Part shown: piece after piece, positions 32,793 through 50,892 of the stretch
Layout of the letters: each line of letters opens with the position of its first letter
Numbering within the stretch: the stretch's first letter is position 1
Assembly (NCBI GenBank): GCA_963716145.1
Contig: OY970292.1
Span: forward strand, 965,404-1,029,403
DNA from: Candidatus Levyibacteriota bacterium
Lineage (GTDB): Bacteria > Patescibacteriota > Microgenomatia > Levybacterales > UBA12049
Length of the DNA stretch: 64,000 nt
Reading direction: 5' to 3'
The notes under the pieces: generated by a model
Seen by the model: the letters and a program-made list of their open reading frames with translations, nothing else
Database searches by the model: none
What the model was told of the DNA's origin: nothing
Translations under genes and position numbers: made by a program

Positions 32793-33509
32793 TTATGGGT
32801 TAATTAATGGGATTCGCAGTATGCTAACTCCAATTAGCTCAAGGAAAACGAAAGCGAAGATCAAGAACAGCAGTCCGACAATCGCAGCAATCAACTGGTC
32901 CCGTCCCTCTTTTACCGCTTCAGGTTTGCCTTCTGATGTCATTATCTTAAAACCGGCCCTCATCAATAGGAGTAGCGCTACTGCCCCTGAGCCGGCGAGA
33001 ATTATAGCAAAGACCGATGCAATAAATTCTCCGGGGTTAGTTCTTAGCCCCCCGACTCCAGTATAAAATTGTGGACATTTTCCATCCTTCAAGTCTTGGG
33101 CGCATGGTGGTTTAGGGGGAGGAGGCTGAGGAATGTCTTCATCACCAGGATAAACGCAAATTTTTCCCAGTAATTTTATTTCTTTACATTCAAGTCTCGT
33201 CTTATCCGGGTCCTCACCGCAGTCCGCACCATTGTCACAAGCGTCTCCAGGATTGCCGAGCGGAAGACAGGCATGTTTGTCGAAACCTCGTTTTATTTCT
33301 CTGCAAGAAACTTTGGGATACTTAGAATCTGGAACACAGACTTCGTCTTTGTCGCATCCATCTCCTACTTTTGCAGCGTAGCTTTTGGGTAAATCTATAG
33401 AAGAGAAGAGGAGCAGAGCAATAAAAAAGATAATACCTGTAAAAAAATTCTTTTTCATCTTTTTAGCATTGCAAATTGCAAGAAAAATTGCAATAGGGCT
33501 TGACAACAT
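32793..33509 (-). CDS. secreted Cys-rich ectodomain fused to a C-terminal two-TM 'pilin-like' module (paralog of 37837..38136)
   Basis: Signal peptide, a ~150-aa domain with ≥14 Cys plus a Pro-rich linker (PQPPPPKPP), then a C-terminus (…GAVALLLLMRAGFKIMTSEGKPEAVKEGRDQLIAAIVGLLFLIFAFVFLELIGVSILRIP) clearly alignable with the 99-aa protein. Confidence 0.6.
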   Translation of the reverse strand: MLSSPIAIFLAICNAKKMKKNFFTGIIFFIALLLFSSIDLPKSYAAKVGDGCDKDEVCVPDSKYPKVSCREIKRGFDKHACLPLGNPGDACDNGADCGEDPDKTRLECKEIKLLGKICVYPGDEDIPQPPPPKPPCAQDLKDGKCPQFYTGVGGLRTNPGEFIASVFAIILAGSGAVALLLLMRAGFKIMTSEGKPEAVKEGRDQLIAAIVGLLFLIFAFVFLELIGVSILRIPLINP

Positions 33510-33536
33510 TTGGCACTCGTGCTATATTATTGCTAA
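33500..33536 (+). promoter_or_regulatory. sigma70-like promoter (TTGACA-17-TATATT) overlapped by a degenerate CIRCE-like inverted repeat
   Basis: ttgaca at 33500-05, tatatt at 33524-29. ttggcactc-N9-tattgctaa (33510-33536) versus the CIRCE consensus TTAGCACTC-N9-GAGTGCTAA. The ATG of hrcA lies 12 nt after the -10 element. Confidence 0.45.
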
Positions 33537-33541
33537 TTCAC

Positions 33542-34273
33542 ATGCATAATTTAACCCAAAGACAGATAGAGATACTACGTAGCATTATTGAAGAGTATAT
33601 TGAAACAGCAGAGGCGGTTGGATCTGAAACTATTGAAAAAAAGCACAATTTAAGCGCAAGTCCAGCAACGATCCGTAATGAAATGGTTAAGTTGGCAGAA
33701 TACGGATATATAAAAAAAACTCACTCTTCGGCAGGGCGTGTCCCTACAGGCTCAGGTCTTAAATTTTATGTACGTGAGCTGATGAAGGAAAAAGAACTAT
33801 CAACAGTTGAGGAAGTTGCTCTTAAAGAAAAAGTTTGGGATTATCGTGAGAAAATGCAGCGTTTTTTAAAAGAAACAACCAAGTCGCTTGCTACTAAAAC
33901 CAATGCTCTTGCCATAGCCACAACCAATGATGGAGATATCTTTTGTTCAGGGTACGCAAATATTTTGGAAATGCCGGAATTTTTTGATATTGATGTAACC
34001 AAGAATTTATTGGAAGCACTTGATGAATATGACTGTTTTGAAAATATTTTTGCAAATACTCAGGGCGGATCGGAAATTCATGTTTTGATAGAAGATGAAC
34101 TTGGCGAAAGCCTGCGTGGTCCTTATGGATTTATCTTCACAGAATATGCAACACCTTTGAATATTCATGGGAGAATTGGTGTATTGGGACCAGCACGCCT
34201 TGCTTATACATCAATAATTCCAACTGTCCGTTATTTTGGAGAAATGATAAGGGAAAGCGCGAAGGGATGGTAA
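33542..34273 (+). CDS. hrcA: heat-inducible transcription repressor HrcA (short, ~243 aa)
   Basis: N-terminal wHTH (LTQRQIEILRSIIEEYIETAEAVGSETI…SPATIRNEMVKLAEYGYIKKTHSSAGRVPT). Start moved to MHNLTQ to fit the promoter. Confidence 0.75.
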   Translation: MHNLTQRQIEILRSIIEEYIETAEAVGSETIEKKHNLSASPATIRNEMVKLAEYGYIKKTHSSAGRVPTGSGLKFYVRELMKEKELSTVEEVALKEKVWDYREKMQRFLKETTKSLATKTNALAIATTNDGDIFCSGYANILEMPEFFDIDVTKNLLEALDEYDCFENIFANTQGGSEIHVLIEDELGESLRGPYGFIFTEYATPLNIHGRIGVLGPARLAYTSIIPTVRYFGEMIRESAKGW

Positions 34274-34326: not shown

Positions 34327-34827
34327 ATGACTAAAAAAGACATAAAAAATGAAGAAGAGAAGCTTGATGAAACAGAAGAAATTGAGGAAAACACAGAAGA
34401 CAGTGAACTTGAACAATTAAAAGTAAAGCTGGAATCAGCAGATGACAGCTACAAAAGAGCGCTTGCTGATTATCAAAATTTGCAGAAAAGAGTAAGTGAT
34501 GAAAGACGAGATCTGATATTGGCGGCCAATAGAGATTTGCTCTTGCGAATTCTTTCTGTTTTGGATACACTGGTTCTTGCAAACAAGCATGACGAGAGCG
34601 AAGGTTTGAAAGTCGCTATTAAGCAATTTGAAGATATACTAAAGTCAGAAGGTGTTACAAAAGTAGAAACTAAAGGATTAGAGTTTGATCCTCAATTTAT
34701 GGAAGCTGTAGCAATTGATTCTGGGGAGGAAAATAAAGTTTTAGAAGAAATGCGTTCAGGATTTATGTTAAACGATAAAGTTCTGAGACCGGCGCAAGTG
34801 AAAGTAGGTTCTGCAAAGCAGAATTAG
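34327..34827 (+). CDS. grpE: nucleotide exchange factor GrpE
   Basis: Acidic N-terminus, coiled coil (…DSYKRALADYQNLQKR…) and a C-terminal beta domain. Confidence 0.85.
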   Translation: MTKKDIKNEEEKLDETEEIEENTEDSELEQLKVKLESADDSYKRALADYQNLQKRVSDERRDLILAANRDLLLRILSVLDTLVLANKHDESEGLKVAIKQFEDILKSEGVTKVETKGLEFDPQFMEAVAIDSGEENKVLEEMRSGFMLNDKVLRPAQVKVGSAKQN

Positions 34828-34839
34828 GAGGAATAAATT

Positions 34840-36759
34840 ATGGGAAAAATAATAGGAATAGATTTAGGAACAACAAATTCAGCAATGGCTGTGATGGAAG
34901 GTGGGTCACCTAAGGTTATCCATTCGGCCGAGGGACGAAACACTGTACCATCTGTTGTTGACCCGATCGCGCATATTGTTGGCGATGTGGCAAAGCGTCA
35001 AATGGCTCTTAAGCCAAAACGCACAATTTTTTCAATAAAAAGATTAATCGGGCGTAAATTTAGCGATAAGACCGTACAGGGGGATATAAAATGGCTTCCG
35101 TATACTGTTAAGGCAGGACGCGACGATATGGCCGTTGTTGAGGTTGAGGGAAAGACTTTTACTCCTCAGGAAATTTCAGCTCAAATTCTGCAGAAGATTA
35201 AAGCGGATGCTGAGGCATATCTTGGGGAAAAGGTAACCCAAGCAGTTATCACAGTTCCTGCATATTTTGATGACAGTGAGCGTCAGGCAACCAAGCAGGC
35301 TGGGGAAATCGCTGGACTTGAAGTTTTGCGTATCATTAATGAGCCAACAGCTGCAGCCCTCGCGTATGGTTTGGATAAAAAGAATGCGCACACCATCGCG
35401 GTTTACGACTTGGGTGGAGGAACTTTTGATATCTCAATTCTTGAATTAGGGGATGGTGTCTATCAAGTTAAATCCACAAACGGTGATACGCATCTTGGCG
35501 GAGACGATTTTGACCAGAAGATTATAAATTACTTGGCAGATGAATTCCAGAAAGAAAACGGAATTGATCTAAGAAAAGACCCTCAAGCCCTACAAAGACT
35601 TAAGGAGTCTGCCGAAAAAGCAAAGATTGAGCTTTCAAGTAGTCAGGAGGCATCCATTAACCAGCCCTTTATAACTCAGGGAAAAGACGGCCCTTTACAT
35701 CTGACTATGAGTTTGTCCAGATCCAAACTTGAGCAAATTGTTGATGACCTGATCCAAAAAACACTAACGCCTCTTGAAAAAGCAATAAAAGACGCAGGGG
35801 TAAAAGTTGCGGATGTTAATGAGGTAATTATGGTAGGCGGTATGACCCGTATGCCAAAGATAGTTGAGGTTGTTGAGAAATTCTTTGGGAAAGAAGCTAA
35901 TCGGTCAGTAAATCCAGATGAAGTTGTGGCAATCGGTGCTGCCGTTCAGGCCGGAGTTTTGGGTGGTGAGGTGAAAGACGTTTTGCTTTTGGACGTCACG
36001 CCATTGACGCTTGGGATTGAAACTCTCGGAAGTGTCTCAACACCATTGATCGAGCGGAACACAACTATCCCAACCAGTAAATCTCAAGTTTTCTCAACAG
36101 CCGCAGATAACCAAACGCAAGTTGAAATTAACGTTCTTCAGGGTGAGCGCCCAATGGCAGCTGACAACAAGTCGCTTGGACGGTTTATCTTAGAGGGAAT
36201 TCCACCCGCCCCAAGAGGTGTACCACAGGTTGAGGTAACATTTGATATTGATGCAAATGGTATTTTAAATGTCTCGGCAAAAGACAAGGCAACCGGTAAA
36301 GAAAACAAAATCCAAATTACAGGAAGCACCGGTCTTTCCAAGGAAGAAGTTGAAAAAATGACCAAAGATGCGGAAATGAACGCAAAAGAAGATGAAGAGA
36401 AGAAAGAAAAGATTGAGGCTCGAAATCACGCTGATTCACTCATATTTACCGCTGAAAAATCTTTGAAGGATGCAGGAGACAAAGTCGCACCTGAAATAAA
36501 AACAGAAGTTGAAGAAAAGATAAAAGCATTGAAAGATATTTTGGATAGCGGATCAAAAGAAGAGCTTGAAGCAAAAACCAATGAACTTTCAGAATCTCTT
36601 CAGAAAATAGGCCAAGCCGCATATCAACAAGGGCAGCAAGCGCAAACTCAGGAGGAAATTGAGAAAGAAGAGAAAGAGGGAAAAACTGACGACGCAACAG
36701 ATTCAGATAAGGACAAGAAAGATAAGGAAGAACCGGTTGAGGGAGAGGTTGTAGAATAA
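34840..36759 (+). CDS. dnaK: molecular chaperone DnaK (Hsp70)
   Basis: GIDLGTTNS…, [16 protein letters not shown], …EVEKM…, acidic C-terminal tail. Confidence 0.95.
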
Positions 36760-36883: not shown

Positions 36884-37762
36884 ATGGCAGACAAAAATTA
36901 CTACACAGTTTTAGGCGTTTCCAAAACTGCTTCAGCGGACGAGATTAAAAAAGCTTACCGTAAGCTTGCTTTGGAATTTCATCCAGACCGCAACAAATCA
37001 AAAGAGGCAGATGCTAAGTTTAAAGAAGTCACCAAAGCATATGAAGTGCTATCAGATGAAGGGAAAAGAAAAACTTATGATCAGGTAGGCCACGCGGGAT
37101 TTGAGCAGGGAGGATTCGGCGGAGCCGGAGGTGGGCCATTTGGCGGCGGCCAGGGTGGGCAGCAAGGCGGACAATACGGACCATTCAGTTATACCTATTC
37201 ACAAGGGGGAAATGGGGCAAATTTTGATTTTGGAGGATTCTCCGACCCATTTGAGATATTTGAACAGTTTTTTGGCGGTGCGTCTCCTTTTGGCCAACGT
37301 CAGCGCCGTCCTGCGTATTCAGTAAAAATTAGTTTTGATGAAGCAGTGCATGGAGTTGAAAAACAGGTAAGTATAGACGGAAAATCACAGAAAATAAAAA
37401 TTCCTCCGGGTGTGGACCGCGGACAACGGATGCGTTTTGGGGATTATGATGCGGTGATAGATGTTACACCTGACAAGCGTTTTGCCAGGGAGGGCTATGA
37501 CATTATAACTGAGAAGGAAATTTCATTCCCCCAAGCAGCACTTGGAGGAGAAATATCGGTTGACACAGTTGATGGCGATGTGAAAATTCGTATTCCTGCC
37601 GGGACACAGCCTGAGACATTGATCCGGCTCGCCGGGCGGGGAATAAAACACCTGCAGTCAAATGGACATGGTGATCACTACCTAAAAATAAAAGTTACAG
37701 TCCCTAAAAAATTGAACAAACAACAAAAAGAGCTGCTCGAACAGCTTGAAAACGCTAAATAA
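36884..37762 (+). CDS. dnaJ: DnaJ-family co-chaperone (J domain + G/F-rich region + C-terminal substrate domains; no CxxCxGxG zinc finger)
   Basis: J domain with HPD (…[13 protein letters not shown]…), a G/F-rich linker, and no cysteine repeats, giving type II/CbpA-like architecture. Confidence 0.8.
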
Positions 37763-38138: not shown

Positions 38139-41100
38139 ATGAAAAAATTTCTGCCCATATTTATAATTGTTTTCTTCGTTGGATTGTTTTTTACAAAAAC
38201 CCCGGTATTTGCTGCTGACCCTCCAGCTCAGCAGATGCAACAGGGAGCAACGGCACCCGATGGATCCTGGGTTTTGGATTCTGAAGTAACCTTTATAGGT
38301 AAAAATGCCGCAAGGTCCGGTAATCTGCTCGATTTTATATTAACAAATTATAATTGGGTTTGTGTTAAGCAGGCAGCAACTGGACAGTGCGACAACAGCG
38401 ATAATCCATTAAGAGGGGTATGGTTGACCACCGCTACATTTATAGTAGCCCCATTGCTCTTGATTGTCATACTTGCTGCCGCAATAGTAATAATGGTTAC
38501 GAGAGGCCGAAGTCTTACGATTACGCGTTTTCTTCCTCGGTTTATAATAGTGATTCTCTTAATTTTCATATCTTTTCCTATATTGCAGTATTTTTACCAA
38601 TTTATAGATAGCATTCAAGGGTTTTTCTTGAGACGGGAAATTATCCTTTTTGGTACGCCGTTTGGAGGCAACCCATGTCCACCTCAGTGTATTTCTCAAA
38701 AAGATCTGCTTTTTGTGGGCTGGGATTATGATAAATTTATTGGGCTTAGGCGAGTAGGCGATCTTTACTCAGAATCTGCATTCATCTCTCTTTTGCTCAC
38801 AAAATTAACAGCGCTTACTTATTATGTAATGGTTGGGATACTAATTCTTCGAAAAATTATTCTCTGGCTTTTTATAATTGTTTCTCCTATTTTTCCGCTT
38901 CTTTTGATGTTTTATCCAGTTCGCAATACCGGGAAGATTTGGATTGGGGAATTTTTTCGTTGGCTCTTGTACGGTCCGCTTTTCGCTATTTTTCTGAATG
39001 GGTTGGTGGCTTTATGGAGGAAGCAGATTCCCTTATCGTTTACCCCATTAGATCCCGCAGTTAAGGTAAACGAAACCATTCTTTATCCAACTGCTATAAA
39101 CATACTATTGGGAGGGCCCAGGCAATTCGTAACGCAGACTAACAGTGTCAACCTTACGGAAACATTTGCTTTATACGTAGTCTCATTACTCATGTTATGG
39201 GGGGTTATCATACTGCCATGGATACTTTTGCAGATATTTCTTGATTATGCTTCCAACTTAGGAGTTAGTGACAGTGCGGTTATGAAAAATCTGGTAAATA
39301 TGGTAAATAGGCAAAATTCTCCATCTCCCACGGGACATCCGCCTGCGACATCGGGATCTGCTCTTAGCTTGCCTTTTGCCAAAAAGTTCAGCATGCCTCT
39401 TCCTGCGGCTCCCGCTGGTATGGCAAAAGAGATACCTATTTCAACAGCAAAGATATCGCAAGCTACTTTTATGCCATCAGCTCAAGTTAAGGCACAGGTA
39501 TTAAGTCTGGCTAGTGTGCCTCTGCCTACAATGCGGGATATTGCCAAATACGATACATCTTTAATTTCAAATGATAATTCTACTCGAAATCAAGTCCAGG
39601 CACTTCAGAAGCATTTACAACAAATTGGAAATCCCGCATCTTCTACTTCAACTACAGAACGTGAAAGGTATACAGAAATACACGAAAAACTTAGTCAAGA
39701 GAGTAAAACTGGAAATACTCTGGCAACATCAATTCTGAATGCAGCGAGTACGGCTTCCAAACGGAGCAGTCAAGTAAGTAGCGCGCAAGTAAAAAATATT
39801 TTAACCCAAATTGCCAACCCTACAACCGCTTCAAGCTCAGTTGTAAACCGAGAGAAACTCTCTAAGATGAATCAGTCGCTTACAAAAGCGAAACAGGAGG
39901 GCAATACTCTTGCAACGGCGATTTTGTCTGTAAATGCAAAGACTCCGGAGTCGGAAGTTGTAAAACTGCAGGAAAAAATAAGAGAAGCCAGAGAAAAAGG
40001 CGAACCTGTTGGAGTTCAGCTGGCTCAACTTACTGAGAAAAAAGAAACAATCCCACTTGTTAATCGTGTTCAGACGGTAAGTAAGGAAGATTATGAAGCC
40101 GTAAAGCAAATGTGGAAAGAAAATTATAAAAATCTCGAAGTGCCGGAAGGTATGGCCGGAACCCGTGAAGAATGGGTTAAGGACGATGTCGCTAAAATAG
40201 ATAACATCATCGTTCAACTGGGCTCACACGACGAAGAACAGATGAATAAAGGCATGGAGGAGGTATCAAGCATTCTACCCTTCCTTTTAGTTGGAGGCTT
40301 TTCACAAACAGAAATTATATCTTATCTAAAAGCTAAGCAAGATGCAGCAAAAGAAGTAACTGCAGAATTGGCCCAGGAAGAGGATGATAAAGTTTCTGTA
40401 ACCGTAAAGAAGACTGCTACGGCTCAGCAAACAATGTCAGCTTCTGTTTCGGAAGATTCAGATGAGGAGTCAGATCTAACCAACTTATCCTCAAGACCAG
40501 CAAATATTATTAATCCCCAAGTGTCAAATGAAATCCTAGAGATGGTTAATCTTAAGCTTCCTAATATGCGTGATATTGCAAAATACGAAACAATGACGTT
40601 ATCAAAAGATAAATCTAAATCGTTAGAAGTCGAGAAAGTACAGGAGGTTCTCCGAAATATTGCTAACCCAACAGGTATAACTAATGCTTCTGATAAGGAG
40701 CGTTATGAAAAACTTAAAGAAAAAATGATTGAGGCAAGTCAACAAGGTAATGTTACCGCAGAGATCATTTTGGCGGCAGCAAATGGGGCAATACCTGTTA
40801 GTAGCACAGTAACTTCCGCTCAGACTAAGACAGTTCTTTCACAAATTGCCAATCCGTCTCTTGCCGCTTCATCAAAAGACAAGCAGCGATTTACTTCACT
40901 TCACGATCAGCTGACAAAAGCAAGTCAACAGGGAAATACTCTGGCAACGTCTCTTCTTTCCGTTAAAGAAACAGCAACCAAAGAGGAAGTGGAAAAGCTT
41001 AATGCTCAATTGGGAGAAGCAAAGGCAAAAGGTGAAAGTCTTGCTAGCTCAGTATTATCAAACATTGCACCTCCTATCTCTCTTCCTGTAACCAATCGTA

Positions 41101-42815
41101 TCCAAACGGTAAGCCAGGAGGATTATCAAGCGGTAAAAGAGATGTGGAAAGAAAATTACCAGAATCTTGAAATCCCCGCTGGTCTGGCAAGCACAAGACC
41201 TGAGTGGATTAACAACGATATTTCAAAGATTGATAGTATCATTACTCAATTGTCATCAACTGATCAGGAACAGGTAGCAAAAGGCATGGAGGAGGTATCA
41301 AGCATTCTACCCTTCCTTTTAGTTGGAGGCTTTTCACAAACAGAAATCACCGCTTATCTAAAAGCAAAACAAGACGCAGCAAGGGAAATACTTACAGTAA
41401 TCTCACAGGAAGAAGATACAAAGATAACGGTTGATAGAAGGCAAACAAACATCAAGCAAACAATGAGAGCAGCTATTCCCCAAGCAGCAGACGAGGAGGC
41501 TATGAGTTTAGCCGGTCCAACAAAAAATATAGTTATTCCGCAAATTTCAGAAAAGACATTAACAATGGCCAATCTTCAGCTTCCCAAGTTGACAGATATT
41601 GTCAAATATGAAGTAAGGAGTTTGACAAAAGACAAAAAAGAGTCAGAACGTATCGAGAAAATGCAATCAGTGCTTGTAAAGATTGGTAATCCGGCAAGTA
41701 TTACAACTCCGCAGGAGCGTGCGCAATATGAAAATCTCCGCCAAAAACTTGGGGAAGAAAGCTTAAAAGGTAATACTACAGCAGATATGATTCTGTCAGC
41801 AGTTTCTAACTTAGAAGGAGCTGTTTCTGAAATTAATGCAACACTGGTAGACATAAGTACAGTACTTCAGCAAATCGCAAATCCCCAGAGCGTTGCATAT
41901 GCAGATGACCGTGATTATTACACACGTTTGCATCAATATCTAGAAAAAGAAAGTAAAGAGAAAAATAACGTACTCGCTGAAAAGATTTTGAGCGTCAATA
42001 AGACAACCAAGACCTCAGACATACAGGATATTAAACAACAATTAATACTTACGAAAGATGGGACAGTATCTCTTCTTCCGCAATTGACGACAGTTATAAA
42101 TGACTTTTCTACTACTAAAAAGTTGAGATCAGTAATAAATCAAATCTTATCACCTGAACCTGTGGGGGGTAAGCCTGCTAGCGCTACAGTTATAAAAATT
42201 CGAAAGTCAATAGATGAGGCAAATAAAAAAGGTGACATTCTTGCAGCATCAATATTGTCGGTTAATGATAAAACATCCGATACAGCCATAAAGCAAATTC
42301 ACGAAAAGCTTACTGAAGCAGGCAAAAAGGGCGATCCCGCTGCACAGGCAATTATTTCGCAAGTCTCTGGACCCTTTGCTTCGTCAAGCGCAAACCGTAT
42401 ACAAGAGGTTACACCGGAAGAGTACGAAGAAGCAAAGGAATTATGGAAAAAAGCCTACCTACAGTATTTTGTCCCTCCTGGTTTTACAGAGGATATTAAG
42501 GGAAGAATTGATTGGATAAGCAAAGACAGTAAGGATATTGAAGAGACAATTGGTCTTTTGCAGTCAACTGACGAGGAAAAGAAAGATACAGGAATCAAAA
42601 AAGTTTCAAGCATTTTGCCATTTTTGCTTCTGGGAGGTTTTTCCTATGATGAGATGATTGAGTATCTTCAAACTAAGCTGGAAGCAGGAAAAGAAGCGTT
42701 AGCTAGTATTAATGATGAAGAGGATAAATCAATTGAAATAAATGTTAAAAAGGAGGAAAAACCTCAAGAAATGCAAGCAAGCGAAGAGATAGAAGGTACA
42801 GATAAGAAAAATTAA
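38139..42815 (+). CDS. giant (1558 aa) polytopic membrane protein: signal peptide, ≥6-TM N-terminal domain, then three ~344-aa super-repeats built from a ~90-aa 'IANP…ASQQGNTLA…ILSV…AKxKG(D/E)' module
   Basis: Signal peptide and TM helices within aa 1-380. Repeated blocks include LPxMRDIAKYE…IGNPA…, …ILTQIANP…LTKA(K/S)QQGNTLATxxLSV… and GMEEVSSILPFLLVGGFSQTEIxxYLKAKQDAA, with 65 nt identical at 40251-40315 versus 41283-41347. Starts 2 nt after the pilin-like gene. Confidence 0.7.
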   Translation: MKKFLPIFIIVFFVGLFFTKTPVFAADPPAQQMQQGATAPDGSWVLDSEVTFIGKNAARSGNLLDFILTNYNWVCVKQAATGQCDNSDNPLRGVWLTTATFIVAPLLLIVILAAAIVIMVTRGRSLTITRFLPRFIIVILLIFISFPILQYFYQFIDSIQGFFLRREIILFGTPFGGNPCPPQCISQKDLLFVGWDYDKFIGLRRVGDLYSESAFISLLLTKLTALTYYVMVGILILRKIILWLFIIVSPIFPLLLMFYPVRNTGKIWIGEFFRWLLYGPLFAIFLNGLVALWRKQIPLSFTPLDPAVKVNETILYPTAINILLGGPRQFVTQTNSVNLTETFALYVVSLLMLWGVIILPWILLQIFLDYASNLGVSDSAVMKNLVNMVNRQNSPSPTGHPPATSGSALSLPFAKKFSMPLPAAPAGMAKEIPISTAKISQATFMPSAQVKAQVLSLASVPLPTMRDIAKYDTSLISNDNSTRNQVQALQKHLQQIGNPASSTSTTERERYTEIHEKLSQESKTGNTLATSILNAASTASKRSSQVSSAQVKNILTQIANPTTASSSVVNREKLSKMNQSLTKAKQEGNTLATAILSVNAKTPESEVVKLQEKIREAREKGEPVGVQLAQLTEKKETIPLVNRVQTVSKEDYEAVKQMWKENYKNLEVPEGMAGTREEWVKDDVAKIDNIIVQLGSHDEEQMNKGMEEVSSILPFLLVGGFSQTEIISYLKAKQDAAKEVTAELAQEEDDKVSVTVKKTATAQQTMSASVSEDSDEESDLTNLSSRPANIINPQVSNEILEMVNLKLPNMRDIAKYETMTLSKDKSKSLEVEKVQEVLRNIANPTGITNASDKERYEKLKEKMIEASQQGNVTAEIILAAANGAIPVSSTVTSAQTKTVLSQIANPSLAASSKDKQRFTSLHDQLTKASQQGNTLATSLLSVKETATKEEVEKLNAQLGEAKAKGESLASSVLSNIAPPISLPVTNRIQTVSQEDYQAVKEMWKENYQNLEIPAGLASTRPEWINNDISKIDSIITQLSSTDQEQVAKGMEEVSSILPFLLVGGFSQTEITAYLKAKQDAAREILTVISQEEDTKITVDRRQTNIKQTMRAAIPQAADEEAMSLAGPTKNIVIPQISEKTLTMANLQLPKLTDIVKYEVRSLTKDKKESERIEKMQSVLVKIGNPASITTPQERAQYENLRQKLGEESLKGNTTADMILSAVSNLEGAVSEINATLVDISTVLQQIANPQSVAYADDRDYYTRLHQYLEKESKEKNNVLAEKILSVNKTTKTSDIQDIKQQLILTKDGTVSLLPQLTTVINDFSTTKKLRSVINQILSPEPVGGKPASATVIKIRKSIDEANKKGDILAASILSVNDKTSDTAIKQIHEKLTEAGKKGDPAAQAIISQVSGPFASSSANRIQEVTPEEYEEAKELWKKAYLQYFVPPGFTEDIKGRIDWISKDSKDIEETIGLLQSTDEEKKDTGIKKVSSILPFLLLGGFSYDEMIEYLQTKLEAGKEALASINDEEDKSIEINVKKEEKPQEMQASEEIEGTDKKN
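39550..42760 (+). repeat. in-frame tandem super-repeat array (period ~1032 nt, three copies) inside the giant membrane protein gene
   Basis: Protein-level three-fold repetition. The 65-nt identical DNA block between copies 1 and 2 indicates recent duplication or gene conversion. Confidence 0.8.
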
Positions 42816-42869
42816 ATTACTTGTTATTTTACGGTAATTAGTATTTAATATAATAGAAGAAAGGATACT

Positions 42870-45800
42870 ATGTTTGGAACATTTTTTAATCAAAAAAAAC
42901 CTGGGGATACTGATTCTAATCAGCAGAATCCTCAAAATACACCTGACCAAACCAATCAATCTTTAGCTCCAAGTAGTCAAACTCCCTCGGGGCAAATTCA
43001 GCAAGCGCAAGATCCGGTAGCGCCTGGACCTATCAGCCCAAACATCTCACAGGATACGTCTTCTCAAGATGTTCAGCAGCAGCCAAATATAAATACTCCT
43101 ATTAAAGATCCAACCGGCAATTTATCACAAAGAGCTGATACTCAAGCATTATCGCACCTTGATCCAAGAGCTGGGCAAGTCCTCACTCACGCGCAAGAAG
43201 AAACAAGACGTATAAAGCAGCAATTTATAGAACCCGCTCAAATCCTTTTTGGCCTATTGTATGATGAGCAGATTTACAAATTATTGGAGGAGTCTCAAGT
43301 TGATGGCGGTGCGTTATCCAAAGAAATTCAGTCAAAAGAAATAATGGGTGTTTTTAGAGGTCAACCAGCTTTAAGTAAGAATGCGCAGGCAGTATTTGAC
43401 CAGGCGTATAAAGACTCAAAAATGCGCGCATCCAACTTTATCTCCGCTGAAGACTTATTGATTGCTTTATTTACTCCTGACTTTGGGGTTTCACAGTCTT
43501 TGGAATCACGAGGGCTTAAAAAAGAGGCCTTAATTGAAAGAATTGCCAAAAATCCTAATTCAAACTACAGCAAAAAAACAATTCTTGAAAGCTACGGAAT
43601 TGATCTCAACGAAGAAGCCAGATCCGGAAAACTTGATCCCATTGCGGGTCGGGATTTGGAAATTGACAGGATGGTTCACATTCTTCTCCGAAGGACTAAA
43701 AACAATCCGATTATTATCGGTGAAACAGGAGTTGGGAAAACAGCAATAGTTGAGGGATTGGCACAGAAAATTGTTGCAGGACAAGTGCCCAAAGATTTAC
43801 AGGACAAAAGAGTTTTTCAGCTTGATGTTGCTTCGCTGGTTGCGGGTGCATCGCACAGGGGAGAATTTGAGGAGCGTCTCCGGGGAGTAATTAATGAAGT
43901 TTTGGGATCAGGAAACAAAATAATTCTTTTTATTGATGAGATTCACGCGCTTTTGGGGACAGGAGACGGAGAAGGGATGAATGCTGCAAATATCATAAAA
44001 CCCCACTTGGCCCGTGGCCATTTGCAGCTGATTGGTGCTACAACCACTATTGAATACAGAAAGAATTTTGAAAAAGATAAAGCATTTGAGAGGCGCTTTC
44101 AGCCTGTAACTGCTGAAGAGCCTTCGGAGGAAAATGCTTTTGAAATGCTCAAAGTCATCCGCCCAAAATATGAGAAGTTCCATAGAGTTACTATTTCTGA
44201 CGACACTCTTATGGAATGTGTCAAACTCTCCAAAAAATATATAGGAGAGCGTTATCTACCTGACAAGGCAGTTGATTTATTGGATGAGGCAGGATCAGAA
44301 GTAAAATTACAAGCGGACGAAGGCAAAAGAGCTGATGCTCAAGTTAAAAAGGCTGATATTGAAAACGTAGTAAGTGGATGGACTGGAATACCTATTACTA
44401 AATTGACAGAGGATGAGTCCGAAAAGCTCTTAAAGCTTGAAGACAGGATCCATCACAGGCTTATTGACCAGATGGAGGCAGTAGTTGCTGTTTCTGAAGC
44501 GGTAAGGCGGGGAAGGATCGGTTTGGCCGCTGCCAATAGGCCGATTGCTTCGTTTGTATTCTTAGGTCCAACAGGAGTTGGAAAAACGGAACTTGCCAAA
44601 ACACTTGCCGAGCTTTTGTTTGGCCGTGATGACGCCATGGCAAGACTTGATATGTCAGAGTATATGGAGAAGCACGAAGTTGCAAAGCTTATAGGTGCAC
44701 CTCCGGGCTATGTTGGTTATGAAGAAGGTGGTCAATTGACAGAAGCAGTTCGAAAGAAACCTTATTCAATTGTACTTCTGGATGAAATAGAAAAAGCACA
44801 CCCTGACGTATTTAACATTCTGCTTCAATTACTTGAAGATGGAAGATTGACTGACAATAAGGGAAATACAATTTCATTCAAAAACACTATTGTAATTTGT
44901 ACATCCAATATCGGAAGTTCTCTCATTCAGGAAAAATTGGCAGAAGATGACCCGCAGCACAAAAAAACACCTGATGAGCAGGCAAAAACATTCAAAGAAC
45001 TGACAGAGGTTGTTAAAGGAGAGCTTATTAAATTTTTTAGGCCAGAACTTCTTAACCGTTTTGATGAGGTTGTAGTATTCAAGCCGCTCGCTCAGGAACA
45101 TATGGCAGGAATTGCAAGATTGGGAATCAAAAAGACAGCAGGCCTTCTTAAAGAGCAGGGCTTTACACTTCAAATTACAGAAAAAGCTATCGCAAAGTTG
45201 GCAAAAGACGGATATGACCCGGTTTATGGCGCAAGGCCTCTACGTCGTTTAATTCAAACAGCGATTGAAAATCCAATAGCCCTTGAGATAATTTCCAAAA
45301 AATTTGAAGCAGGAGATACGATCGTTGTTGATTATAATGATGCAAGTAATGAGTTTACATTCACCAAAGGCCAAAGTGATGTAAATACAGCAGATAGCTT
45401 GAAAAAAATACTGCTTGATATAAATAATGCATCAGGCCTTACTGATCCAGCAAAAAAAGATCAATACACTAGGCTCCACGACAGCATCACTCAGGCTAGT
45501 GCTCAGGGAAATGTGTGGGCTGGTGCAATACTTGTTGTAAATAAGGATAGTAAGAATGAAGAAATTGAAAAAATTGCAAAAGAGTTAAAAGCAGCTCGGG
45601 ACAAAGGTGATCAGCTTGCTCAGGATATAGTGGCACTCTTAAATACAGAAACAGTTAAGGAGGCTGAAATGGAACATGAGAAAGAGCCGGTAACCCAGTT
45701 TAAAAAAATGCTTCAACAAATAATTAATCCTTTGTATTCGGCAACACCAGGTAACAAGGATAGATTTAGTCAATTGTATGAAAAACTTACAGCGGCAAGT

Positions 45801-46553
45801 CAACAAAACAACTCAATTGCCGCCTCAATTCTTGCAATTACAGAACAAGCCCCAGATTCAGATATTCAGCAGTTAAAAACTCAACTTGAAACTGCTAAGG
45901 GTCAAGGTGATCAGTTGGCAATTGATATTCTTTCAACAATAGAAGCTGGTACCAAAACCGAAGCAGTAGCAAGGCTTAAAGAAGTATTGCTTTCCATAGT
46001 TAATCCTATTACTGTTCAGATTCCACTTGAAAAAGAAAAATATGTGGCACTTGCCAAGAAAATTTCCGAAGCGTCTCAAGCTGGGAATGCTTTAGCAAAT
46101 TCGATACTTTCTGTAAACGATGCGACTACTGATGACTCACTTATACAGCTTAAGACTCAATTAGAAACTGCAAAGGATAGTCATGATGAGGTGGCTAGTG
46201 CAGTTTGGGAGATGGTATCCGGGACGGGACTGATTGCAAGCGCTGAACAGCAAGTCTCAGAGCAAAATCCCGCTAAAACATACCCATTTGGTATGGGGCA
46301 GCAGCCTGTTAATAACCCATTGACCCCAGATCCATCTCAGGGAGCGGTCTTGCAGCAGGGGGCGGTTCTTCAAGCACCAATTGCCCAACCAGCTTTTGGT
46401 CAATCAAGTGGCGGGCCGACTACTTTCCAGCCCCCTACAGCTGATCCCCAAAGCGGCATGAGTCCGGGAATGAGTACGTTAAATGAAATTTTGGAAAAAG
46501 ATACAGATTTGGTAAGTAATCCTGTTGAATCAGACGGTCAGGATATAACTTAA
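42870..46553 (+). CDS. ClpC/ClpA-like double-AAA+ unfoldase: N-terminal Q/P/S-rich tail, Clp_N domain, D1 and D2 but no M-domain and no ClpP-docking loop, plus a C-terminal ~380-aa extension carrying the same repeat module as 38139..42815
   Basis: Clp_N (…[34 protein letters not shown]…). D1 Walker [19 protein letters not shown]; D2 Walker [21 protein letters not shown], Walker [11 protein letters not shown], sensor [12 protein letters not shown]. The C-terminus shows three repeats (…[44 protein letters not shown]…[17 protein letters not shown]…; …[43 protein letters not shown]…[14 protein letters not shown]…; …[11 protein letters not shown]…[19 protein letters not shown]…[12 protein letters not shown]), then a Q/P/G-rich tail. 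Confidence 0.85.
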
Positions 46554-46555
46554 GA

Positions 46556-47287
46556 ATGAAATTAGGATTGTTTACCCAACTTATTCTTGCATTCATAATT
46601 CTCCTTCTAATCTCTTTCTTGTTACCAGTAGTACACATAGCAAATATTGAGGCACTTCTTGCGTCATCAACATTTTTATTTGGGGTTCTTTATGGTTTTG
46701 AAATATCAATAGTTCTGGATAATTTTTCTAAACTCAAGGCACTCCTGGCGGTAGAAAATGCAGGTGTATTGTCCATTTATCATTTAAGTAAAATTATCGG
46801 TGGTAGTTTTTCTGAAGATATAGAAAAAAGAATAGAGGTATATCTTAAAAAAGCTATAGATATTCCTCTAGATAGGCATTTGCAGGAAACAAATAAAGAA
46901 TTCTTTGCAATATTTGAACCACTACAGAACGCAAAAGTAAATGGAGATGAAAAAATATCCGCATTAGGCTGTATTAATCAAGGATTATATTATATTCCGC
47001 AGTCAAGAGCCCAAATTGCCCAGGTTGCTCCGAGAGACGTTGATCGGCCCGAATGGTCGATGCTTCTAATGCTCGCATTTATTATTATAGGAACCTTGCT
47101 CCTATCTAGGGAAGCAAGTATAATTTCCCAAGTAGCATCAGCAATTTTCGGTACCACTTTAATAGGGGCATTATTATTGCTTGAAGAGGCTGATAGCAAT
47201 CATTTGCAGGAAGCACGTCTCGAGTATGAAGTCTTCAACGAGACTTTAGAGGCAATGGGTAAACCCCGATATTATCCAAAAATGTGA
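46556..47287 (+). CDS. polytopic membrane protein, hypothetical
   Basis: 243 aa with ≥4 hydrophobic helices. Starts 3 nt after the Clp-like gene, so is probably co-transcribed. Confidence 0.5.
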   Translation: MKLGLFTQLILAFIILLLISFLLPVVHIANIEALLASSTFLFGVLYGFEISIVLDNFSKLKALLAVENAGVLSIYHLSKIIGGSFSEDIEKRIEVYLKKAIDIPLDRHLQETNKEFFAIFEPLQNAKVNGDEKISALGCINQGLYYIPQSRAQIAQVAPRDVDRPEWSMLLMLAFIIIGTLLLSREASIISQVASAIFGTTLIGALLLLEEADSNHLQEARLEYEVFNETLEAMGKPRYYPKM

Positions 47288-47331
47288 TTTAAGTCTGAGG
47301 ATTAGATTGTAAGCCCAATACTTTTTCTATC

Positions 47332-47360
47332 TTGAAAAGCTCTATAAAAGCCTTTATACT
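47332..47360 (+). promoter_or_regulatory. sigma70-like promoter (TTGAAA-17-TATACT)
   Basis: ttgaaa at 47332-37, a 17-nt spacer, tatact at 47355-60. ~95-nt leader with a strong SD (ggaaaggaggtga) before the ATG at 47458. Confidence 0.4.
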
Positions 47361-47457
47361 GTGCAAGAATTGGATTCTTAATAAACCTATGCTATTCTTT
47401 TTAGAAATACAGTATTTGGGTTTAGTCCAAGTAAACCTTGGGGAAAGGAGGTGACAT

Positions 47458-47919
47458 ATGAACAGAAATATTTTAATAGCAATTGTAGTAATTTTGGTTA
47501 TTGGTGGTGTTGTTATGGTTCAAAATAGTTCTAAAACACAAACAACCAATCCCGGTGCTCAGACTCAAACTCCGTCTGAAAAAGATGATTCAAAAATGGA
47601 TAAATCAGAAACAGAGCCATCCGCTAGTGCGATGGAGGATGATGAGAAGAACGCAAATGAGATTACATTGACAAGTAGTGGATTTTCACCAGCAACTATC
47701 ACCATTAAAGCAGGAGAGAAAGTTGTATGGAAGAATGAAAGCGGAGGTCCAGCCACTGTTGATTCTGCACAGCATCCCACTCATCTGGTTTATCCAAAGT
47801 TAAATTTGGGTAGATTTGAAGATGGAGAAGAGCTAAGTTTGGTTTTTGATGAACCTGGCAAATATAACTATCACGACCACCTTAATGCATCAAGATTTGG
47901 AACAGTGGTTGTTGAGTAA
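47458..47919 (+). CDS. membrane-anchored or secreted cupredoxin-like beta-sandwich protein (no Cys copper ligand)
   Basis: N-terminal TM, then …ITLTSSGFSPATITIKAGEKVVWKNESGGPATVDSAQHP…YNYHDHLNASRFGTVVVE, a plastocyanin/EfeO-like pattern lacking a cysteine. Confidence 0.4.
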   Translation: MNRNILIAIVVILVIGGVVMVQNSSKTQTTNPGAQTQTPSEKDDSKMDKSETEPSASAMEDDEKNANEITLTSSGFSPATITIKAGEKVVWKNESGGPATVDSAQHPTHLVYPKLNLGRFEDGEELSLVFDEPGKYNYHDHLNASRFGTVVVE

Positions 47920-47940
47920 AAAGCGTGCTAAAATATCTGC

Positions 47941-50892
47941 ATGGCAGACCTGAAAAATCTGAATGCCGAACAACTTCAGGCGGTAACGCACGGAGAGGGC
48001 CCTCTTCTCATTATTGCTGGAGCGGGAACCGGTAAAACAACCGTTGTCACAACCCGCATTCAGAATCTAATACTTGAGAGAAAAATTCCACCGGGCAATA
48101 TTTTGGCGTTGACTTTTACCGAAAAGGCGGCCTCCGAGATGGAGACAAGAATTGATGAAATAATGCCTTTTGGCTACACGCAGATGTGGATTGAGACTTT
48201 TCATGCATTTGCTGATCGGATTTTGCGAGCGGAAGCAATTCATATTGGTCTTAATCCCGGTTTTGATTTATTGACTGAAGCAGAGTCCTTACTCTTTTTA
48301 AGAAAACATTTATTTGAGTTTAATCTTGAATACTTCAGACCTCTTGGAAATCCCATGAAATTTCTTCAAGGAATGCTAAATCATTTCGCGAGACTTAAGG
48401 ACGATGATATATCACCTGATAATTATCTGGAATATGCAAAAAAAGCTAAAGGTGAGGCTGATGAGATCAAAAAGACTTTGGAACTTGTAAATGCATTTAA
48501 AAAATATGAAGAACTTAAGGCAAAAAAAGGCGTTATGGATTTTTCAGATTTGATCAGTAACACGCTGAAGCTTTTTAGAACCCGCAAGAATATATTGGCA
48601 GAGTATCAAAAATTGTTCCAATATGTTTTGGTTGACGAATTTCAGGATACCAATTACGCACAAAATGAACTTGCAATTCTTTTAAGCGGTAATAAAAAAA
48701 ATATCACAGTTGTAGGTGATGATGACCAAAGTATTTATAGATGGCGGGGGGCTGCAATCTCCAATATGATTCAATTCAGGTCACATTTTCCAAAAGCCAA
48801 AATTGTAGCACTTACCAAAAATTATCGCTCAACCCAAAATATATTGGACGCGTCTTATAAATTAATTCAAAACAATAATCCCGACAGACTTGAGGTTAAG
48901 GAAAAAATTGACAAGAAACTTGTCTCAAAGCGTGAAATTAAAGGAAGCGAGCCTGAGTTTATCTACACGAATAAAGCAGAGGATGAAGCAGAAGAAGTCG
49001 CAAAAAAAATTCTAGAAATCTCCAAAAAATCAAACCTAAAATATAATGATTTTGCATTACTTGTGCGGGCAAATGATCATGCACTGCCTTTTCAAAAAGC
49101 GTTTGAGCGGAAAAGAATACCTTATCAATTTTTGGGCCCCGGACATCTTTTTCAACAGTCGGAAATTAAAGATTTAATCGCGTATCTTCATTCGCTGGCA
49201 AATTTTGAAGATACGGCAGCACTTTACAGAGTAATTACTCTGCCAATTTTTGATATTGAAGCCCGTGATGTTGCAGCTATTCTTAATTTTGCCAAAAAAA
49301 ATAACTACTCACTTTTTGAGGCAATGGAACAAGCAGAAAGTTCGAGTTTGACTCCAAGCGGAAAAGAAAAAATAAATCGGATAATTAAAATGATGAAACG
49401 GCATCTTGCAAGAATTCCGGCGGATTCTGCAGGACAAATTCTTTATTATTTTTTCGAAGACTCAGGTTTACTCGGTCATTATTTAGATCCTAAATCTCAG
49501 AGAACTGAAAAAGAAGCACAAAATGTCGCCAAATTTTTTGAAAAACTTCAGAATTTTGCGGCCAACCGCGAGGATGCTTCAGTTTTTGCTGTTGTTGATT
49601 GGATTGATCTATCAATGGAGCTTGGGGAAAGCCCGCTTGCTGCCGATATCGACTGGACTCAGAATAACGCAGTAAATATATTGACAGTTCACTCAAGCAA
49701 AGGACTTGAGTTTCCGATTGTTTTTGTTGTGAATCTGGTAACACAACGGTTCCCAAGTAGAGACAGAAAAGAGCAAATTCCGGTTCCGGAAAAATTGATT
49801 AAAGAAGTGCTGCCAACGGGAGATGAGTCGCTTCAGGAGGAGAGGCGGCTTTTTTATGTTGCGATGACGCGTGCAAAGGATAATTTATTTCTGACAGCTA
49901 GTAAATTTTATGGAGAAGGAAAAAGAGAAAGGAAACTGTCGCCATTTTTGGCAGAGAGTTTGGGGGAGGAATACATAAAAAGTGTTGTAAAAAAACAATC
50001 AACAGAGCCGCTTGATCAACAGCTCTCGCTCCTTGATATCGCAAATTCTCAAGCCCAAAACTCAAAAGAAGAAAAGTCTGTACCGCTTAATAGGCAGATT
50101 ATTACTCCAATTAACTACATCTCCTACTCTCAAATTGCAACTTTTTTAACATGTCCGCTTCACTACAAACTCCGTTATATTCTCAATTTCCCCTCGATAG
50201 CGGCACCTGCTCTAAGTTACGGAATTAGTGTTCATGCAACGCTTCGCGATATTCTACTTGTCGATAAATCAGCAGGCAAAATTGGGGAAGCGGAAATAAA
50301 AAATATTCTTAAAAAGAATTGGCTGCATGATGGATATAGCAGTAAAATTCATGAACAGCAGTCATATACCCAAGCCGAAAATATGCTGTCTGATTTTTGG
50401 AAAAACTACAAACAGGAAAAACCAAAAACAATTGGTATTGAGACGCCTTTTAGTTTTTGGCTCACCCATTCGGGACATTCGGCTGAGCTCAGTCGAAGCC
50501 CAGGCTCAGGGCAGGATAAATTAAAGATTGCAGGAAGAATTGATAGAGTTGATAAGTTGCCTGATGACAAAATCGAAATAATTGACTATAAAACAGGAAA
50601 AAATATGATTGATGAGAAGAAAGCAAAAGATGATTTGCAGTTGTCATTTTACGCTCTTGCAGCGACGGAAGTGAAGGATGATATTTTTAACAAAACTCCT
50701 GACGATATTGTTTTAACGCTTTATTACTTGGAAGCAAATCAAAAAATCTCAACAACCCGCTCAAAAGAAGAGCTGGAAAGTGCCAAAGAGAGAATATTAA
50801 AAATAGTTTCAGAGATTGAAACCAGTGATTTTAAATGCAGCGGAGGGATGCAGTGCAAAAATTGCGAATACAAAATGCTCTGCCACTCTTAA
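47941..50892 (+). CDS. UvrD/PcrA-type SF1 helicase fused to a C-terminal PD-(D/E)XK nuclease domain with an Fe-S Cys cluster (AddA/AddB-like single-chain helicase-nuclease)
   Basis: LNAEQLQAVTHGEGPLLIIAGAGTGKTTV (motifs Q/I), VDEFQDTN (II), …VGDDDQSIYRWRGA… (III), and the later TVHSSKGLEF… (V/VI). C-terminus: …RIDRVDKL…IEIIDYKTGK (RecB nuclease motif) and …C…CSGGMQCKNCEYKMLC. Confidence 0.8.
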   Translation: MADLKNLNAEQLQAVTHGEGPLLIIAGAGTGKTTVVTTRIQNLILERKIPPGNILALTFTEKAASEMETRIDEIMPFGYTQMWIETFHAFADRILRAEAIHIGLNPGFDLLTEAESLLFLRKHLFEFNLEYFRPLGNPMKFLQGMLNHFARLKDDDISPDNYLEYAKKAKGEADEIKKTLELVNAFKKYEELKAKKGVMDFSDLISNTLKLFRTRKNILAEYQKLFQYVLVDEFQDTNYAQNELAILLSGNKKNITVVGDDDQSIYRWRGAAISNMIQFRSHFPKAKIVALTKNYRSTQNILDASYKLIQNNNPDRLEVKEKIDKKLVSKREIKGSEPEFIYTNKAEDEAEEVAKKILEISKKSNLKYNDFALLVRANDHALPFQKAFERKRIPYQFLGPGHLFQQSEIKDLIAYLHSLANFEDTAALYRVITLPIFDIEARDVAAILNFAKKNNYSLFEAMEQAESSSLTPSGKEKINRIIKMMKRHLARIPADSAGQILYYFFEDSGLLGHYLDPKSQRTEKEAQNVAKFFEKLQNFAANREDASVFAVVDWIDLSMELGESPLAADIDWTQNNAVNILTVHSSKGLEFPIVFVVNLVTQRFPSRDRKEQIPVPEKLIKEVLPTGDESLQEERRLFYVAMTRAKDNLFLTASKFYGEGKRERKLSPFLAESLGEEYIKSVVKKQSTEPLDQQLSLLDIANSQAQNSKEEKSVPLNRQIITPINYISYSQIATFLTCPLHYKLRYILNFPSIAAPALSYGISVHATLRDILLVDKSAGKIGEAEIKNILKKNWLHDGYSSKIHEQQSYTQAENMLSDFWKNYKQEKPKTIGIETPFSFWLTHSGHSAELSRSPGSGQDKLKIAGRIDRVDKLPDDKIEIIDYKTGKNMIDEKKAKDDLQLSFYALAATEVKDDIFNKTPDDIVLTLYYLEANQKISTTRSKEELESAKERILKIVSEIETSDFKCSGGMQCKNCEYKMLCHS

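Follow-up and report, generated by a model that had tools for sequence, protein, structure and literature searches.

Substrates of Hsp100 unfoldases exit at the D2 face; ClpP binds to this face in ClpA, ClpC and ClpX, and HSP101 contacts the PTEX pore with it. In ClpB the M-domain is the element that docks DnaK. The ClpV N-domain binds VipB, and HSP101 binds EXP2/PTEX150. The host-attached life of Patescibacteria is thought to depend on surface and secretion devices, and these bacteria abound in VirB2-like pilin arrays; the one type IV secretion system (T4SS) tested in them is reportedly essential. A dedicated contact of a ClpB-type unfoldase with a secretion apparatus has been described (PMC7182274), VirB2-like proteins have been modelled as assembling on a VirB6 pentamer (bioRxiv 10.64898/2025.12.18.695078), VirB6 homologues have been reported as scarce in Microgenomatia (PMC12102498), and the C-terminal parts of extended VirB6 proteins have no explained role (PMC12857230). 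The 64,000-nucleotide stretch of a Candidatus Levyibacteriota genome analysed here (contig OY970292.1; hereafter the window) encodes, side by side, a long VirB6-like membrane protein and a ClpB-like ATPase (Clp) that carry the same unnamed helical repeat, and the repeat block of Clp may be a docking domain for the membrane protein.

When Clp was compared with the membrane protein by BLASTP, only Clp residues ~806-1134 aligned, in six high-scoring segment pairs (E 1e-20 to 2e-9) that fall in three regions of the membrane protein. A hidden Markov model (HMM) built from the membrane-protein copies alone gave Clp 178 bits, spread over three domains with 60-65 bits apiece; the converse HMM, from the three Clp copies alone, gave the membrane protein 285 bits over seven domains. 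The window has 394 other six-frame open reading frames (ORFs), and none of them scored. These reciprocal single-protein searches bear out the claim of an earlier note on this DNA that one module is common to both proteins, and the alignment, which that note allowed might fall to insignificance on formal profile comparison, stays significant. The two ORFs (1558 and 1227 residues) and the 54-nt gap between them are also as the note gave them.

Repeat units were delimited by anchoring on an I-x-N-P motif together with alignment, which gave ten units in total. The membrane protein contains seven, where about six had been counted before, and they fall into two length classes: a short form of ~62 residues (M1, 488-549; M3, 833-894; M5, 1174-1237) and a long form of ~82 residues (M2, 550-632; M4, 895-977; M6, 1238-1320; M7, 1328-1410). 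The three copies previously noted in Clp are all present and all long (C1, 843-925; C2, 943-1025; C3, 1035-1117). The consensus of 356 long units from 49 genomes reads K.vL.QIaNP.....p.dKekftkLHdkL.kASq.GN.LA.sILsVnd.Tsd.eIekL.eqL..AK.kGDplA.eiL. and describes a cap helix (..vL.QIaNP) followed by two helix-turn-helix sub-repeats of ~30 residues with the pattern L..L..A...G[ND].LA..IL. The two halves after the cap are homologous (hhalign probability 96.7%, E 3e-10), the long unit being an internal duplication, and the short unit is the cap plus one sub-repeat. Conservation is position-specific, with I9, A42 and L46 invariant and with NP and GN motifs, and the composition of this helical module is rich in Lys, Glu, Gln and Ser.

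Structure predictions of both proteins were made with AlphaFold2 (AF2) on single chains. The model of Clp residues 735-1140, computed with 80 homologues, has a predicted local distance difference test score (pLDDT) of 82.6 and a predicted template modelling score (pTM) of 0.69; it is all-helical after the D2-small domain, with five helices per unit, the last of which continues into the next unit. The membrane protein has its repeats within a larger module, of which there are three copies. Each copy comprises an LPxMRDIAKYE motif, one short and one or two long repeats, and memX, a label given here to an acidic helical domain of ~110 residues with a conserved ILPFLLVGGFS core. The pLDDT is 80-95 over the membrane-protein repeats and memX. 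Clp has neither the LPxMRDIAKYE motif nor memX. Net charge is -8 to -12 for memX, -1 to +4 for the membrane repeats and 0 to -4 for the Clp repeats, so that charge complementarity is not informative. The repeats of the two proteins contain 0.034% and 0.016% Cys, compared with 0.41% in the housekeeping proteins of the window; Cys depletion was rejected as a sign of extracellular location because the repeats of cytoplasmic Clp are equally Cys-poor.

Pfam searches at E values up to 10 gave only scattered single matches for the repeat, with nothing recurrent or significant. NCBIfam holds no family for the membrane protein, and its matches to Clp stop within ~20 residues past D2-small. A sequence-profile search of the PDB gave nothing credible (best match 24 bits over 27 residues, to an entry that its depositors named THR2), and fold searches with the repeat gave generic helical matches only. 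The module is unnamed in Pfam, NCBIfam and PDB sequence families, as had been suspected. The sub-repeat spacing A-x3-G-x3-A-x3-L resembles that of Sel1-like repeats, a lead that the searches did not support, since no Sel1/TPR profile or solenoid fold matched; a relationship to FIVAR likewise found no support in the Pfam and fold searches. No description of the repeat, of the Clp architecture or of a pilin/VirB6-like pair inside a dnaK gene string was found in the literature.

A profile search of 1.84 billion representative proteins returned 153 matches. These belong to the membrane-protein family almost throughout, with two Clp entries and ~20 short proteins, among which nineteen are fragments of Clp C-termini or membrane proteins and two others are marginal matches. 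The repeat is essentially confined to two protein families, the VirB6-like proteins and the adjacent Clp, and the possibility raised in the earlier note, that it is a widespread and already named domain without linkage to AAA+ genes, was not borne out. Repeat-bearing Clp proteins were found by searching with full-length Clp and then scanning with a local HMM: in ~97 clusters (90% identity, independent assemblies) D2-small is directly followed by 1-6 long units. The usual number is four, and three in the subclade of the window. Complete proteins of this type are ~1150-1660 residues long, a few shorter entries appearing truncated, and the next-closest Clp proteins (834-984 residues) have no repeats. 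A word-indexed search with the 310-residue Clp C-terminus alone gave zero matches, which marks the sensitivity limit of that method, the identical protein and ~97 related clusters being in the database. The locus search with a single protein gave two genomes, one from Levyibacteriota and one from Saccharimonadales. Overall, this helical module is restricted to one lineage, that of Levybacteria and related Microgenomatia.

The Clp protein matches the Pfam families Clp_N, AAA, AAA_lid_9, AAA_2 and ClpB_D2-small. The Walker A and B motifs of both AAA+ modules are intact, as is the D2 pore loop GYVGYEEGG. Its best PDB sequence match is Escherichia coli ClpB (E 6e-206), to which it aligns in two blocks (query 105-485 with ClpB 14-408, and query 489-824 with ClpB 528-850). 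ClpB residues 409-527, the whole M-domain, are absent, three query residues bridging 408 to 528. There is no [ILVM]G[FL] ClpP-docking tripeptide in Clp residues 681-740. The protein scores under the cut-offs of all three NCBIfam models considered: ClpB TIGR03346 (869.9 bits, cut-off 1232.1), ClpA (701.4 bits, cut-off 993.15) and TssH (657.5 bits, cut-off 885). The ATPase, which the earlier note had called ClpC/ClpA-like, is instead best classed by its sequence as a ClpB-like protein with a deleted M-domain and without a ClpP-binding loop. In the C-terminal tail pLDDT is below 50 from model residue 386 (residue 1120 of the protein), the first 14 tail residues being the part modelled. It was also observed that the D1 pore-loop Tyr of ClpB (AGAKYRGEFE) is His in Clp residues 324-333 (43839-43868), and that this His is nearly invariant in an 81-sequence family alignment.

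The earlier description of the partner as a giant polytopic membrane protein stands as regards polytopic; its identity can now be refined to an extended TrbL/VirB6-like protein paired with a VirB2-like pilin. PF04610 (TrbL) is matched by 14 of 23 more distant family members (E up to 0.01) and is the only family to recur; the best of these proteins, P0120, scores 27.8 bits, over the cut-off of 25.9. The membrane protein of the window itself has no Pfam match, PF04610 included. Hydropathy shows six hydrophobic segments after the signal peptide, and AF2 places helices at 90-121, 128-164, 208-248, 251-257, 264-294 and 340-374. The outward-facing segment carries conserved Cys75 and Cys84, and the first loop is strongly positive. 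The ~1180 hydrophilic residues after residue 375 fit the extended-VirB6 layout as defined in PMC12857230. No VirB6 structure (R388 TrwI included) is among the fold-search matches listed, and no VirB4, coupling-protein or other T4SS gene was seen among the window ORFs scanned with Pfam; in the related loci, which the search also covered, no virB4 or coupling-protein domain was found either. From its sequence signal and gene context the protein appears to be a divergent extended TrbL/VirB6-like protein; since there is no virB4 nearby and no fold match, it is termed VirB6-like rather than a proven VirB6 member. As a separate observation, the disordered linker after the last hydrophobic helix (pLDDT below 50 at residues 393-446) is variable and yet contains a strictly conserved LPFxKKFxxP...G stretch (residues 410-430, ~39366-39428; invariant columns P412, F413, K415, K416 and F417), a candidate short linear binding motif.

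In all eight related loci that were retrieved, a pilin-like gene is followed by the VirB6-like gene; Clp comes next in seven, the contig of the eighth (L009) ending before the Clp position. This conservation agrees with the dedicated gene pair that the earlier note had suggested; 49 further membrane/Clp pairs were recognised by equal contig size. The hrcA-grpE-dnaK genes lie upstream in six loci (L001, L002, L003, L007, L008 and L009), and in L006 the contig ends before their position. Seven loci have dnaJ, which is absent from L009, and in all seven the pilin, VirB6-like and Clp genes follow it directly. Minimal family members of 742-790 residues hold the same position; in L008 the gene of such a member comes after dnaJ, and in L009 it follows dnaK directly. 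The Clp of L001 (P0270, 1217 residues) has three repeats; those of L002, L003, L006, L007 and L008 have 874-953 residues, the size of repeat-free orthologues, and scans of the L002 and L003 proteins (P0368 and P0362) for repeats found none. Because these sister lineages keep the gene order with a repeat-free Clp, the gene linkage is older than the shared repeat. On this comparison the association with chaperone genes goes back to the ancestor of a broad clade, and the Clp repeats were added later, in one subclade.

How the repeats came to be in Clp was examined across genomes. Clp units match one another by position, with a mean best identity of 73%, and are ~35% identical to the membrane units of their own genome. 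Their best membrane matches are long-form units, and a unit of the own genome is the best match for only 2 of 178 Clp units, which argues against ongoing gene conversion between the neighbouring genes, a reading that was rejected on this ground. The position-wise matching suggests that the units were probably acquired once, through one old capture of a block of long units onto Clp. Identity in 18 close orthologues is 94-95% for D1 and D2, 60-71% for the repeats, which have no indels, and 37-48% for the disordered tails, which have gaps. Over 43 genomes the repeats average 49% identity, compared with 83% for the core, and are the fastest-evolving folded part of Clp; the block is nevertheless kept in the ~97 clusters, whose cores have diverged to ~57-60% identity. 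These values point to a block constrained in length and fold but fast-evolving, as interaction domains often are.

That a domain occurs only in two proteins encoded side by side, and has long been kept in one of them, is most simply explained by direct contact, and such a distribution predicts a specific protein-protein contact. It is therefore tentatively proposed, as a real possibility short of an even chance, that the Clp repeat block is a docking domain tying the unfoldase to the VirB6-like protein. In this proposal we infer mutual binding, a cytoplasmic arm and the identity of the ATPase substrate. The original home of the repeat would be the long hydrophilic C-terminal arm of the extended VirB6/TrbL-like protein. 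In one subclade a block of the long form would have been copied once onto the C-terminus of the downstream ClpB-type ATPase and kept since. Docking would be of the like-binds-like type: the repeats would leave D2-small on the hexamer face where threaded substrate exits, bind the repeat/memX arms of the VirB6-like protein and so hold the unfoldase on the membrane complex. Clp could then work locally, pulling VirB2-like pilins or other clients out of the complex or feeding them in, in a manner resembling ClpV serving the type VI system or HSP101 serving the PTEX export pore. A wider version of this scheme is doubtful and considerably less probable than docking itself: that pilin, extended VirB6-like protein and Clp without M-domain together make up a minimal machine of a new kind that does without VirB4, in which an Hsp100 hexamer docked by its C-terminal repeats under a VirB6 pentamer powers pilin extraction or protein translocation under heat-shock (HrcA) control.

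Several findings weigh against docking. The same gene order in sister lineages with a repeat-free Clp implies that the repeats are not needed for whatever links the genes. A mirror-tree comparison of the Clp repeats with the membrane protein gave a weak partial correlation of 0.22-0.23, and the copy number of the membrane-protein repeat, ~1 to 20 across the family, is a pattern typical of surface proteins. The side of the membrane on which the arm lies is a further point, and the proposal is held tentatively because docking requires a cytoplasmic arm. Six hydrophobic segments after the signal peptide, as read from hydropathy, would put the arm outside the cell, whereas AF2 fuses two of them into the helix 208-248, giving five crossings and a cytoplasmic arm. 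In the solved R388 system membrane crossing is limited to two N-proximal helices of VirB6, and most of the protein lies in the periplasm (PMC12857230). If that layout holds here, the arm would be extracellular and could not meet cytoplasmic Clp once exported; the repeat would still be a new domain family, and the case for coupling would be much weaker.

As a somewhat unlikely alternative to docking, the VirB6-like arm and the Clp C-terminus may each bind a shared third partner separately, such as DnaK, DnaJ, the VirB2-like pilin or a lipid headgroup, and in one variant the Clp repeats could replace the missing M-domain as the link to the DnaK system. Such an arrangement would suit the position of both genes within the dnaK gene string in every locus examined, the loss from Clp of the element by which ClpB docks DnaK, and the character of the repeat as a surface-rich helical array, of a kind that often binds peptides or proteins. 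However, the closest Clp orthologues, which lack both M-domain and repeats, keep the same neighbours; no similarity of the repeat to the ClpB M-domain, or to a known domain that binds chaperones, could be detected; and with an extracellular arm the two proteins could have no cytoplasmic ligand in common.

An extracellular arm would be compatible with a further explanation, which we judge unlikely, in which the VirB6-like arm is itself the client. Clp, with DnaK and DnaJ, would keep it unfolded or unfold it before its export, or it would be remodelled or extracted from the membrane, and the Clp repeats would recognise those of the client by helix complementation. The C-domain of F-plasmid TraG is periplasmic, and R388 VirB6 offers a similar precedent (PMC12857230); an arm of ~1200 residues must cross the membrane if it ends outside, and chaperone genes are present in the same gene string. 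Set against this, Hsp100 substrates enter at the N-domain/D1 face and the repeats lie at the other end, that of D2; a large external domain located after membrane helices is normally taken across by Sec with no unfoldase involved; and repeat-free orthologues serve membrane proteins with just as many repeats.

It is improbable that the two proteins are not functionally coupled at all, local rearrangement having copied part of the neighbouring gene to the 3' end of clp, where it would persist as an appendage that is neutral or of generic use (a spacer, solubility tag or self-association element). Gene adjacency makes such a capture mechanically easy, the repeats evolve faster than any other folded part of Clp, and sister lineages do without them. 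A neutral appendage is hard to reconcile with the retention of the block, in position-matched units without indels, in ~97 clusters of such diverged cores, with its confident folded AF2 model, or with the different behaviour of the unconstrained tails of the same protein. An artefact of low-complexity or coiled-coil composition, of mis-assembly or of a missed stop joining two genes, which the Lys/Glu/Gln/Ser-rich helical composition and the empty first word-indexed search might have suggested, is excluded by the position-specific conservation, the 60-65 bits per domain in the cross-HMM test, and an ORF that is continuous in the window and has the same architecture in ~97 independent clusters.

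The pair lies in a gene string that begins with hrcA (Table 1). The earlier note was right in placing a DnaK system nearby; rather than merely flanking it, the pilin, VirB6-like and Clp genes lie within the hrcA-grpE-dnaK-dnaJ string. At its head, a near-consensus sigma-70-type promoter scores 11/12 in a promoter scan, and the consensus of the controlling inverted repeat of chaperone expression (CIRCE) is matched with 3 mismatches at 33510-33536, a match given by 0 of 100 shuffles. As the listed hrcA ORF opens at a TTG at 33500, inside this promoter/CIRCE site, the true start codon is probably further downstream. No convincing plus-strand terminator was seen between the promoter (33500) and the end of clp (46553), and shuffled sequence has promoter-like sites at least as often as clp does around the beginning of its repeat block. 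Intergenic gaps are 74 nt between dnaJ and the pilin gene, 2 nt between the latter and the VirB6-like gene, and 54 nt from there to clp. The pilin scores just under the cut-offs for T4SS_pilin PF18895 (E 1.1e-5, 25.8 bits, cut-off 26.6) and further under that of the NCBIfam Mbov_0395 pilin-like family (26.5 bits, cut-off 40); a small gene is present at its position in every related locus examined, and the equivalent in relatives is annotated T4SS_pilin.

Table 1. Positions in the window of the genes of the string and of the parts of the two repeat-bearing proteins.
Feature	Position	Strand	Details
Promoter-like site, TTGACA-17-TATATT with TG	33500-33536	+	Overlaps a CIRCE-like inverted repeat; head of the hrcA gene string
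hrcA	33500-34273 (as listed)	+	Pfam HrcA
grpE	34327-34827	+	Pfam GrpE
dnaK	34840-36759	+	Pfam HSP70, E 1.9e-255
dnaJ	36884-37762	+	Pfam DnaJ plus DnaJ_C
VirB2-like pilin, 99 residues	37837-38136	+	Two-helix hairpin with charged loop; Pfam PF18895, under cut-off
VirB6-like membrane protein, 1558 residues	38139-42815	+	
TrbL/VirB6-like part, residues 1-375	38139-39263	+	Signal peptide, outward-facing segment, six hydrophobic helices, CPPxC loop
Pro/Ser/Gly-rich linker, residues 376-461	39264-39521	+	LPFxKKF motif; predicted disordered (AF2)
Supermodule 1	39522-40388	+	LPTMRDIAKYD 39522-39554, M1 39600-39785, M2 39786-40034, memX1 40056-40388
Supermodule 2	40557-41423	+	LPNMRDIAKYE 40557-40589, M3 40635-40820, M4 40821-41069, memX2 41091-41423
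Supermodule 3	41580-42743	+	LPKLTDIVKYE 41580-41612, M5 41658-41849, M6 41850-42098, M7 (long) 42120-42368, memX3 42396-42743
ClpB-like ATPase (Clp), 1227 residues	42870-46553	+	
Clp residues 1-830	42870-45359	+	Gln/Pro-rich tail (1-100), Clp_N, D1, D2, D2-small; M-domain deleted
Clp repeat block	45396-46220	+	C1 45396-45644, C2 45696-45944, C3 45972-46220; all long form
Clp C-terminal tail	46248-46553	+	Pro/Gln/Gly-rich; through stop codon

Other genes around the string were also recorded. Divergent from hrcA, at 32793-33509 on the minus strand, lies a second VirB2-like gene, whose 238-residue product combines a signal peptide with an outward-facing domain rich in Cys, a linker rich in Pro and, at the C-terminus, a T4SS_pilin hairpin (PF18895, 28.0 bits, over the cut-off); L002 and L003 have small minus-strand genes at this position. 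Downstream, on the plus strand, a small membrane protein of 109 residues (52447-52776) is followed by a Clp-like ATPase of 802 residues (52773-55181) with N-terminal hydrophobic helices, a degenerate D1 Walker A motif (GDIGEGKEN) and an intact D2. In L002, L003 and L006 a small-protein/second-Clp pair comes after the first Clp, directly or with one gene between, and before a VWA-domain gene; L007 has the second ATPase and the VWA gene with no small gene called, the L001 locus ends inside the ATPase, and in the window no VWA gene was seen after the second Clp-like ATPase. Between the first Clp and this pair the window has bestrophin-like, cupredoxin-like and AddA-type helicase-nuclease genes (46556-50892, plus strand). 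These intervening genes are absent from the repeat-free L002, L006 and L007, L003 has one unannotated gene of 246 codons there, and in L001, of the repeat-bearing clade, the cupredoxin and helicase genes are present. Elsewhere in the window, a 924-residue phosphoketolase ORF (5911-8685, plus strand; XFP_N, XFP, XFP_C) ends in a C-terminal CoA_binding_2 domain, which may be an unusual fusion, and is followed by the gene of an AMP-forming ligase.

The locus supplies a widespread, divergent VirB6-like family in Microgenomatia, placed with its pilin in the main chaperone gene string and not beside virB4. If docking is true, it would represent a new targeting route for an Hsp100, in which a covalent C-terminal docking domain stands in place of the M-domain, and would offer a first way into the function of the C-terminal extensions, so far unexplained, that extended VirB6 proteins have. 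The minimal machine, if real, would show the ultra-small Patescibacteria to energise a VirB6-based conduit in a new way.

Among described systems, the membrane protein compares best with extended VirB6/TrbL proteins (F-plasmid TraG, Rickettsia RvhB6, the 700-900 residue VirB6 homologues of mating-pair formation class FA, and TcpH), which likewise have five or six N-terminal hydrophobic helices and, in common with it, a large hydrophilic C-terminal extension (PMC12857230). In Gram-positive bacteria a small two-helix VirB2-like gene adjoins virB6, as here (bioRxiv 10.64898/2025.12.18.695078). In contrast to those systems, the window pair sits in a heat-shock dnaK string with no virB4 or coupling-protein gene among the window ORFs scanned, and the extension consists of a repeat and memX module found nowhere else. 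As serial helical units, the repeats are also comparable to the FIVAR/GA repeats of Ebh and to Sel1/TPR repeats.

Clp shares with ClpB/Hsp104 the N-domain, two AAA+ modules, the D2 pore loop, D2-small, the lack of a ClpP loop and a gene beside dnaK. It differs from them in the missing M-domain and the D1 pore-loop change from Tyr to His, and in having a C-terminal repeat block of ~285 residues and disordered tails. ClpA and ClpC, with ClpS, MecA and McsB, likewise use an accessory module to direct a double-ring Clp to clients or places; their adaptors, however, are separate proteins that bind the N- or M-domain, and these ATPases dock ClpP via an IGF/IGL loop, whereas the module of the window Clp is covalent, at the C-terminus, and is accompanied by no such loop. 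The likeness to ClpV/TssH, Francisella ClpB and Plasmodium HSP101 is one of concept only, that of an unfoldase tied by a dedicated contact to one membrane apparatus in place of general disaggregation, a role that the window Clp may share. Where ClpV and HSP101 have their own contacts, the candidate contact of the window Clp would be a C-terminal repeat homologous to the repeats of its partner. Overall, the components are of known kinds, an Hsp100 and an extended VirB6, and it is the domain and the pairing that are new.

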